From assembly GCF_003334355.1 (NCBI RefSeq), contig NZ_QOWP01000001.1: a DNA stretch of 64,000 nt. The stretch is one strand, 5' to 3'. How positions within the stretch are numbered: the stretch's first letter is position 1; the number at the start of each line of letters is the position of its first letter. The position numbers and the translations under genes are program-made. Shown one piece after another: positions 40,540-42,565 of the stretch. Source of the DNA: Escherichia coli. GTDB taxonomy: Bacteria; Pseudomonadota; Gammaproteobacteria; Enterobacterales; Enterobacteriaceae. The notes under the pieces were generated by a model. The model ran no database searches. It worked only from the letters and a program-made list of their open reading frames with translations, and had not been told where the DNA came from.

Positions 40540-41727
40540 ATGGCGGACAAAAAGCTTGATACTCAACTGGTGAATGCAGGACGCAGCAAAAAATACACTC
40601 TTGGCGCGGTAAATAGCGTGATTCAGCGCGCTTCTTCGCTGGTATTTGAGAGTATGGAAGCCAAAAAGCACGCGACGCGCAATCGCGCCAATGGCGAGTT
40701 GTTCTATGGACGGCGCGGAACGTTAACCCATTTTTCCTTACAACAAGCGATGTGTGAACTGGAAGGTGGCGCAGGCTGCGCGCTATTTCCCTGCGGGGCG
40801 GCAGCGGTTGCTAATTCGATTCTTGCTTTTGTCGAACAGGGCGATCATGTGTTGATGACCAACACCGCCTATGAACCGAGTCAGGATTTCTGTAGCAAAA
40901 TCCTCAGCAAACTGGGCGTAACGACATCGTGGTTTGATCCGCTGATTGGTGCCGATATCGTTAAGCATCTGCAGCCAAACACTAAAATCGTGTTTCTGGA
41001 ATCGCCAGGCTCCATCACCATGGAAGTCCACGACGTTCCGGCGATTGTTGCCGCCGTACGCAGTGTGGTGCCGGATGCCATCATTATGATCGACAACACC
41101 TGGGCAGCCGGTGTGCTGTTTAAGGCGCTGGATTTTGGCATCGATGTTTCTATTCAAGCCGCCACCAAATATCTGGTTGGGCATTCAGATGCGATGATTG
41201 GCACTGCCGTGTGCAATGCCCGTTGCTGGGAGCAGCTACGGGAAAACGCCTATCTGATGGGCCAGATGGTCGATGCCGATACCGCCTATATAACCAGCCG
41301 TGGCCTGCGCACATTAGGTGTGCGTTTGCGTCAACATCATGAAAGCAGTCTGAAAGTGGCTGAATGGCTGGCAGAACATCCGCAAGTTGCGCGAGTTAAC
41401 CACCCTGCTCTGCCTGGCAGTAAAGGACACGAATTCTGGAAACGAGACTTTACAGGTAGCAGCGGGCTATTTTCCTTTGTGCTTAAGAAAAAACTCAGTA
41501 ATGAAGAGCTGGCGAACTATCTGGATAACTTCAGTTTATTCAGCATGGCCTACTCGTGGGGCGGGTATGAATCGTTGATCCTGGCGAATCAACCAGAACA
41601 TATCGCCGCCATTCGCCCACAAGGCGAGATCGATTTTAGCGGGACCTTGATTCGCCTGCATATTGGTCTGGAAGATGTCGACGATCTGATTGCCGATCTG
41701 GACGCCGGTTTTGCGCGAATTGTATAA
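40540..41727 (+). CDS. metC: Cystathionine beta-lyase
   Basis: ATG at 40540 gives [37 protein letters not shown]..., 395 aa; track extension trimmed. Confidence 0.95.
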
Positions 41728-41866
41728 CATTGCCACTTTTGGACAATTTTGCAGACATTTAATTGTGAAAAGTCTTAAATTGTTGCGTCCGGGATCAAGG
41801 CGTCCCGGACGAATCAGGAGTACAATAGGCAGATAAAGGCTTAAACGCTGTTCCACAGGAAAGTCC

Positions 41867-42526
41867 ATGGCTGTTATTCAAGATATCATCGCTGCGCTCT
41901 GGCAACACGACTTTGCCGCGCTGGCGGATCCTCATATTGTTAGCGTTGTTTACTTTGTCATGTTTGCCACGCTGTTTTTAGAAAACGGCCTGCTGCCCGC
42001 CTCATTTTTGCCAGGCGACAGCTTGTTGATACTGGCAGGAGCATTGATTGCCCAGGGGGTTATGGATTTTCTGCCTACGATTGCGATTCTGACCGCCGCA
42101 GCAAGTCTGGGCTGCTGGCTAAGTTATATTCAGGGGCGCTGGTTAGGGAATACCAAAACGGTGAAAGGCTGGCTGGCACAGCTTCCTGCTAAATATCACC
42201 AGCGCGCCACCTGCATGTTTGACCGCCACGGTCTGCTGGCGCTGCTGGCTGGACGTTTTCTTGCATTTGTCCGTACGCTGCTGCCAACCATGGCGGGAAT
42301 TTCCGGTCTGCCAAACCGCCGTTTCCAGTTTTTCAACTGGTTAAGCGGATTGCTGTGGGTCAGCGTGGTAACCAGTTTCGGCTATGCCTTAAGTATGATT
42401 CCGTTCGTTAAACGCCATGAAGATCAGGTAATGACGTTCCTGATGATCCTGCCAATTGCCTTGTTAACCGCTGGCTTGTTAGGCACGCTGTTTGTGGTGA
42501 TTAAAAAAAAATACTGTAACGCCTGA
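41867..42526 (+). CDS. yghB: DedA-family inner membrane protein
   Basis: 219-aa [47 protein letters not shown]. Confidence 0.92.
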
Positions 42527-42565
42527 CGATTTTCCCTGTTCCCGGTTGCTGTACCGGGAACGTAT

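Follow-up and report, generated by a model that had tools for sequence, protein, structure and literature searches.

What is the function of the short, GC-rich inverted repeat that separates metC from yghB in Escherichia coli? The repeat was noticed in a 64-kb stretch of E. coli DNA (64,000 nucleotides, here called the window, to which all positions refer unless K-12 coordinates are given), and a preliminary description made from the sequence had left three roles side by side: a weak terminator, an RNA stability element or a protein-binding palindrome. The upstream gene metC belongs to the MetJ regulon and is repressed by methionine; the product of the downstream gene yghB is involved in undecaprenyl-phosphate recycling and solvent tolerance. 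On the E. coli chromosome the genes around the repeat are exbB (minus strand), metC, yghB and yqhC (minus strand), and RefSeq has no annotated feature under the repeat itself. The reading preferred here, to which we assign a probability of roughly 0.7, is that the inverted repeat forms the 3'-terminal stem-loop of the monocistronic metC mRNA, serving as a leaky terminator that lacks a U-tract, as a barrier to exonucleases, or as both. The stem-loop and its two neighboring genes are located as follows.

40540 to 41727, plus strand: coding sequence of metC (cystathionine beta-lyase), from the open reading frame list and the RefSeq annotation; stop codon at 41725-41727.
41786 to 41811, plus strand: stem-loop, consisting of the 5' arm CGTCCGGGA (41786-41794), the loop (41795-41802) and the 3' arm TCCCGGACG (41803-41811).
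41867 to 42526, plus strand: coding sequence of yghB (DedA-family membrane protein), with its ATG at 41867.

The arms constitute a perfect Watson-Crick inverted repeat of 9 bp (cgtccggga/tcccggacg; 41786-41794 with 41803-41811), in which seven of the nine pairs are G-C. The preliminary description had reported a perfect 8-bp stem at 41787-41810; the sequence is exactly as it stated, and the repeat is one pair longer. The hairpin starts 59 nt past the metC stop codon and ends 55 nt ahead of the yghB ATG, which agrees with the distances of about 60 and 55 nt given earlier. The absence of a T-tract, likewise claimed there, is borne out, as the tail behind the stem reads AAUCAGGA in the window and AUUCAGGA in K-12, without a U-run and with only one or two U among the first 8 nt. 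A promoter and terminator scan that required at least five T in eight positions called neither the hairpin nor the yghB promoter, and a permissive Rfam scan of positions 41300-42300 on both strands, up to E = 10, yielded no match.

As RNA, the stem is extended to 10 bp by a wobble pair (U41795-G41802), leaving a loop of 6 nt. The fold-energy calculation that the preliminary description had proposed as a check gave a stable structure of -20.2 kcal/mol (RNAfold, 39-nt context), compared with -10.3 +/- 2.5 kcal/mol for 200 dinucleotide shuffles, none of which folded equally well (z = -3.95). The reverse strand folds more weakly (-16.9 kcal/mol), and the hairpin is retained in the minimum free energy (MFE) fold of the entire metC-yghB intergenic region. 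Two other arrangements were considered and rejected. Pairing of an upstream UUGGAC with the 5' arm, as in an antiterminator, would involve just six pairs, two of them wobbles, across a 40-nt loop, and the MFE fold keeps the hairpin; a terminator on the minus strand has no converging gene at the hairpin and no T-run past the stem on that strand. Another perfect, GC-rich hairpin with a 9-bp stem, GTTCCCGGT tgctgt ACCGGGAAC, is found at 42538-42561 in the 39-nt gap separating the convergent stop codons of yghB and yqhC, and is probably a shared bidirectional 3' stem-loop of these two genes. Perfect hairpins with stems of 9 bp or more and loops of 3-10 nt number 12 in the window, compared with 2.4 +/- 1.6 in dinucleotide shuffles. 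One such hairpin alone is not beyond chance, and the palindrome by itself is suggestive, not decisive.

Published transcript ends bear directly on the question. Coordinates of the K-12 sequence NC_000913.3 are converted to window positions by subtracting 3,111,696. In the SMRT-Cappable-seq data of Yan et al. 2018 (PMC6131387, Supplementary Data 1, M9_TTS sheet) a forward metC (b3008) transcript extends from 3152209 to 3153511, where its end is labelled 'novelTTS'.

41815 (K-12 3153511), plus strand: 3' end of the monocistronic metC transcript (Yan et al. 2018, PMC6131387), 4 nt past the stem.

A total of 121 reads start at the metC transcription start site (TSS) 3152209; at 3153511, 30 of them end, 49 pass and 2 end no more than 50 bp downstream, and the median read-through past this position is 436 nt (PMC6131387). 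These counts, obtained in M9 medium, imply that about 37% of the reads that reach the hairpin stop, and that about 60% continue into yghB. The operon table of the same study lists metC alone, metC-yghB (b3008|b3009 from TSS 3152209, 'novel') and yghB alone from TSS 3153528. The row with the metC 3' end is found in the M9 sheet only, with no counterpart in the Rich sheet, which fits the repression of metC by methionine. The authors concede that processing may account for some ends, and their capture of 5'-triphosphates enriches unprocessed RNAs (PMC6131387).

The preliminary description had named a lack of transcript 3' ends or processing sites at this position as the observation that would speak against it. 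An end is present at 41815, documented by 30 long reads of one dataset, although the Term-seq data of Adams et al. 2021 (PMC7815308), which cover LB at OD 0.4, LB at OD 2.0 and M63, list none at the hairpin; the element is thus weak, or its 3' end of low abundance. The Rho-termination table of Adams et al. contains no coordinate within 3153400-3153599, and the TERMITe supplements hold no entry at the metC-yghB locus. The nearest 3' end of Adams et al. (3153564, window position 41868) coincides with the T of the yghB ATG; it is low-scoring, was called not Rho-dependent and is present twice in the three-condition table. It follows a small hairpin predicted within the yghB leader, a nearly invariant sequence (GCTGTTCCACAGGAAAGTCC), and could represent a short leader RNA or a processing site.

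Among complete E. coli genomes, 5,422 of 5,426 contain the 401-nt region around the hairpin, and K-12, O157, an O2:H6 strain and the window do not differ in the hairpin. The sole common polymorphism lies directly past the stem, where about 1,500 genomes (including the window) have GAATC and about 3,900 (including K-12) have GATTC. The hairpin carries a short direct repeat.

41785 to 41790 and 41800 to 41805, plus strand: two direct repeats GCGTCC of 6 bp, exactly 15 bp apart.

Slippage between these copies would remove the 5' arm and most of the loop, and any 15-bp deletion that starts at 41785-41791 leads to one identical product. This slippage-prone deletion was found in none of the 5,424 natural genomes carrying the locus, which argues that the intact arrangement is maintained. 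A different interruption is present in one complete genome, that of E. coli isolate 624 (NZ_OW967003; L004 3215-3982), where an IS1 element with a 9-bp target duplication (ggcgtcccg) has been inserted inside the 3' arm, at about window position 41800-41808, splitting metC from the yghB promoter.

Species-representative genomes scanned with YghB yielded 80 loci from Enterobacteriaceae, in all of which metC lies upstream of yghB, with an intergenic spacer of 124-326 nt. A fold of -10 kcal/mol or better is formed by 38 of 61 distinct sequences, and about a third of the distinct sequences have no hairpin. The stems differ across genera (e.g., CGTCCGGG/CCCGGACG, CGCCTGCG/CGCAGGCG and CGCCCG/CGGGCG): Citrobacter has the arms CGTCCGGGAU/AUCCCGGACG, Leclercia and Silvania have CGCCUGCG/CGCAGGCG, and many Enterobacter have CGCCCG/CGGGCG. 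When RNAalifold was applied to a plain MAFFT alignment of 66 distinct sequences, it returned no consensus structure, owing to a one-position shift of register in Leclercia and Enterobacter and to the lack of a stem in several genera. When the E. coli register is imposed on the alignment, 62% of the cells pair. In an alignment fitted with a covariance model, which itself leans to the structure, 77% of the cells pair, as against 35-59% for slid partners. Four of the nine pairs of the fitted alignment have changed on both sides (31 cells), a number of covarying pairs that is not above that of shuffles (4 vs 3.9); the covariation score of this structure-fitted alignment (0.237 vs 0.164 +/- 0.010) exceeds all 500 shuffles and all slid controls. 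These results are mixed, and we take them as moderate support for selection on pairing.

The stem is absent without an evident substitute in Pseudescherichia vulneris, some Enterobacter, Lelliottia and Trabulsiella. Several further features of the spacer were observed in the same set of loci. In Pluralibacter gergoviae and Entomohabitans (L084 1227-1274 and L078 1302-1349) the hairpin and a -10-like box adjoin metC and are parted from yghB by an insertion of 120-200 nt. Most genera other than Escherichia have a second inverted repeat, TGCAGAC-N15-17-GTCTGCA, about 25-55 nt past the metC stop codon and upstream of the hairpin; it is conserved in sequence (L019 and other Citrobacter, Salmonella, Enterobacter), and the E. 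coli form (GCAGAC...GTCTTA, window 41750-41776) is degenerate. Sequence CACSKA010000008.1 (L041), labelled Chryseobacterium sp. 18061, contains a typical Enterobacteriaceae metC-yghB locus whose YghB is 89% identical to that of E. coli, and probably represents a mislabelled or contaminated assembly.

The element can be compared with four known classes. With canonical intrinsic terminators it shares a GC-rich hairpin of typical size and energy (10-bp stem, -20.2 kcal/mol), located past a stop codon and tied to an RNA 3' end; it differs in that the hairpin has no U-tract of 7-8 nt (1-2 U in the first 8 nt), that the end lies at +4 instead of about +7 to +9, and that only about 37% of the reads stop. 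No T-run follows the stem in any genus among the 66 distinct Enterobacteriaceae sequences aligned. Because the U-tract is missing, the stem is not a canonical intrinsic terminator. Stem-loops poor in U that set stable mRNA 3' ends in E. coli were described by Dar & Sorek 2018 (PMC6061677). The metC hairpin resembles them as a stable GC-rich stem-loop of the 3' UTR with no uridine run after it and no A-tract before it, with a steady-state 3' end directly past the stem and a low U content. The class of Dar & Sorek was established with Rho-dependent transcripts, in which C mildly exceeds G downstream, whereas for the metC hairpin neither the literature nor the base composition indicates Rho dependence or a C-rich, G-poor rut site: no Rho-termination coordinate is reported nearby, the downstream 55 nt contain 11 C and 13 G, a translated gene begins 55 nt downstream, and most transcripts go on as bicistronic RNA. 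Among the leaky intergenic terminators of Yan et al. 2018 (PMC6131387) the site is a listed member, one of 310 'novel TTS', and shows no difference from them; the read-through lengthens the RegulonDB operon from metC to metC-yghB, and the paper contains no individual discussion of the site. REP/BIME palindromes are likewise intergenic, GC-rich and able to stabilise upstream mRNA. They occur in many dispersed copies with a common consensus, whereas the metC hairpin is single-copy and stands outside any repeat family (a median of one place per genome among complete E. coli genomes, and one covariance-model match in the window).

Of the three roles proposed in the preliminary description, the first two fit the 3' end at 41815, whereas protein binding is disfavoured, as the arms differ between genera. 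A weak terminator and a 3'-end-stabilising stem-loop both fit the end of Yan et al. and are inseparable on those data. Under the preferred reading, when metC is transcribed in a methionine-poor medium, about one third of the transcripts reaching the site would end 4 nt past the stem, and about 60% would run on as bicistronic metC-yghB RNA. The 3' end would most likely be the outcome of hairpin-dependent termination of low efficiency, of exonucleases that trim 3'-to-5' up to the stem, or of the two combined, and the stem, once the end has been formed by either route, would shield the metC message.

It may instead be that no termination takes place at all, that every polymerase enters yghB, and that PNPase or RNase II trims RNAs ended or cleaved downstream back to the stem, which would then be a pure stability element of metC. 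We consider this somewhat unlikely, though it has several observations on its side: the missing U-tract, an end only 4 nt from the stem base (nearer to the stem than in canonical intrinsic release, a point that also counts against the preferred reading), a median read-through of 436 nt, so that many transcripts end within yghB, the precedent of such a class (PMC6061677), and the admission of the long-read authors that some ends may be made by processing (PMC6131387). The precedent is weakened by its definition on Rho-dependent transcripts, given that Adams et al. report no Rho-termination coordinate in 3153400-3153599; the 55 nt past the stem are A-rich, with no C-over-G excess, and translation of yghB begins so close behind the stem that little room is left for the loading of Rho. 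The capture of 5'-triphosphates moreover favours unprocessed RNAs (PMC6131387). That the repeat is a GC-rich palindrome without function, arisen by chance, appears extremely improbable to us. By chance alone, a 64-kb window of such composition should contain about 2.4 perfect hairpins with stems of 9 bp or more, and the Term-seq data contain no end at the site, but the hairpin is invariant in E. coli although its 6-bp direct repeats favour deletion, and pairing is kept with differing sequences in Escherichia, Salmonella, Citrobacter, Leclercia, Silvania, Superficieibacter, Pluralibacter and many Enterobacter. It is conserved and has a mapped RNA 3' end 4 nt past the stem, and is therefore not a chance palindrome.

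The hairpin also overlaps the promoter of yghB, for which the following features were located.

41780 to 41798, plus strand: conserved blocks TTGTTGCG (41780-41787) and GATCAA (41793-41798), from 66 distinct Enterobacteriaceae sequences.
41821 to 41826, plus strand: TACAAT, the -10 hexamer of yghB, 6 nt upstream of the TSS and near-invariant in the 66 sequences.
41832 (K-12 3153528), plus strand: TSS of yghB (b3009; Yan et al. 2018, PMC6131387, Supplementary Data 2), 21 nt past the stem.

Counted from this TSS, the -35 position is taken up by part of the hairpin, namely loop and 3' arm (about 41797-41803), and the 26 bp of the hairpin span approximately -46 to -21 of the promoter. The hexamers at a spacing of 16-18 bp from TACAAT match TTGACA at 0-2 of 6 positions. 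Block TTGTTGCG is situated just 5' of the stem, overlapping its first bases, 32 bp upstream of the -10 hexamer. Together with GATCAA, which contains a Dam GATC site, it is invariant or nearly so even in stemless genera; within GATCAA, no variation is seen at ATC and the second A (41798), whereas the G and the first A are near-invariant. The spacing from TTGCG to TACAAT is constant at 32 bp in the 66 distinct sequences. With TTGCG at 32 bp instead of 17 bp from the -10 hexamer, yghB would have a weak promoter lacking a -35 element. Further conserved blocks of the spacer are (A/G)GGAGTACAAT and, in the yghB leader, GCTGTTCCACAGGAAAGTCCATG. The conservation of the 5' arm and loop beyond the needs of pairing points to an additional constraint acting at the DNA level.

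Kluyvera and Pseudocitrobacter carry an insertion of about 110 nt right after metC with strong GC-rich hairpins, some of them followed by T-runs in Pseudocitrobacter. Decay of the ancestral 3' arm is seen in each of the two genera, and TTGCG, GATCAA and TACAAT persist. The pattern of these two lineages would fit a role of the stem at the metC 3' end and a separate, DNA-level role of the conserved blocks.

Earlier promoter and regulator assignments in the spacer were compared with these positions. By genomic SELEX, Shimada et al. 2014 placed a 'constitutive' RpoD holoenzyme site in the metC-yghB spacer (TGGACA-15-TATTGT, window 41740-41766), that is, upstream of the hairpin, which would put the hairpin into the 5' UTR of yghB. 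This promoter was rejected, as the sole long-read TSS of yghB (3153528) lies downstream of the hairpin and other genera do not share the predicted -10; TGGACA of the site is conserved across genera, and the window strain has AATTGT at the predicted -10. Sites for sigma-E, sigma-54, FNR (TTGAT-N4-ATCAA) and MetJ (MetJ box) and a marbox were compared by eye, as consensus sequences, with TTGTTGCG...GATCAA; no candidate agrees in sequence as well as in spacing, the marbox being closest. A literature search revealed no link of yghB to MarA, SoxS or Rob beyond Babel & Krömer 2020 (PMC7653855). Grainger et al. 2007 assigned an FNR ChIP-chip peak to yghB (3,151,520 in older K-12 coordinates), which converts to about window position 41809, in the hairpin region; the site that they predicted is at the yghB ATG.

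The inverted repeat had been noticed before in an evolution experiment. In the work of Babel & Krömer 2020 (PMC7653855), evolution of MG1655 with isoprenol in M9 yielded a 15-bp deletion which removes one 9-bp arm and raises yghB mRNA 14-fold; a repressor site or a cruciform was proposed. In the common product of the 15-bp deletions that start at 41785-41791 the hairpin is lost (from -20.2 to -6.0 kcal/mol) and TTGCGT-17-TACAAT is gained. At 17 bp from TACAAT, TTGCGT matches the -35 consensus at three of six positions, including TTG, as against one of six in the wild type. From the sequence of the product we infer that the evolved deletion arose by slippage between the GCGTCC repeats and created a TTGCGT-17-TACAAT promoter. 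Removal of a terminator that stops about 32 of 81 transcripts can raise read-through at most about 81/49 = 1.65-fold; the 14-fold rise of yghB therefore probably acts on initiation. The newly spaced -35 would suffice to explain this rise, with no repressor needed.

Following Babel & Krömer (PMC7653855), the palindrome may also be seen as a device of promoter control at the DNA level, either an operator for a dimeric repressor of yghB or a cruciform that keeps sigma-70 from the -35 region. Such control is compatible with a terminator role and does not exclude it, but we judge it unlikely. The 14-fold effect of losing one arm lies beyond the ceiling for a terminator and would have to be exerted on initiation, the -35 position counted from the TSS at 41832 is covered by the palindrome, the sequence of the 5' arm and loop is kept even where the stem is lost, and the FNR peak is reported at yghB; each of these agrees with an operator or a cruciform. 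The deletion has a simpler account in the movement of TTGCGT to 17 bp from TACAAT, and the full FNR consensus is absent at the hairpin, where its left half is lacking. No regulator is known, nor did the literature connect yghB directly to MarA, SoxS or Rob. A palindromic operator would be expected to have both half-sites conserved, whereas the 3' arm is highly variable and has disappeared from several genera, which retain the 5' arm only and hence no symmetric site; the 5' arm itself varies at 3-4 positions, and only the loop and the TTGCG flank are invariant. Arms that differ between genera and are often still complementary correspond to the pattern of a nucleic-acid structure and not to that of a half-site recognised by a protein. 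A more speculative proposal, which we rate as very unlikely, is that the palindrome is a 'spacer lock', conserved throughout Enterobacteriaceae, that would keep TTGCG, a good -35-like sequence, 15 bp out of register with the yghB -10 hexamer as a switch operated by one slip, or that an unknown regulator or a supercoiling-dependent cruciform acts at TTGCG...GATCAA. If the spacer lock were real, a single replication slip would delete 15 bp, destroy the terminator and make a strong yghB promoter, and would thus represent a latent one-step switch for tolerance to solvents and envelope stress.

In the preferred reading, as 3'-terminal stem-loop of the metC mRNA, the hairpin is a known kind of element that had already been mapped, as a 'novelTTS' by Yan et al. 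2018 and as a repeat by Babel & Krömer 2020. Modestly new are the link between these two reports and the interpretation of the 15-bp deletion as a product of slippage by which a -35 element is made. The significance is mostly one of annotation, in that the hairpin sets the 3' boundary of the metC transcript, and it adds one further case of a terminator that overlaps the promoter of the next gene. The deletion of a supposed repressor site that gave 14-fold yghB and isoprenol tolerance probably creates a properly spaced -35, which is the simpler reading and is useful for the engineering of yghB. Since yghB is partly co-transcribed with a methionine-regulated gene, its dosage may rise under methionine scarcity.
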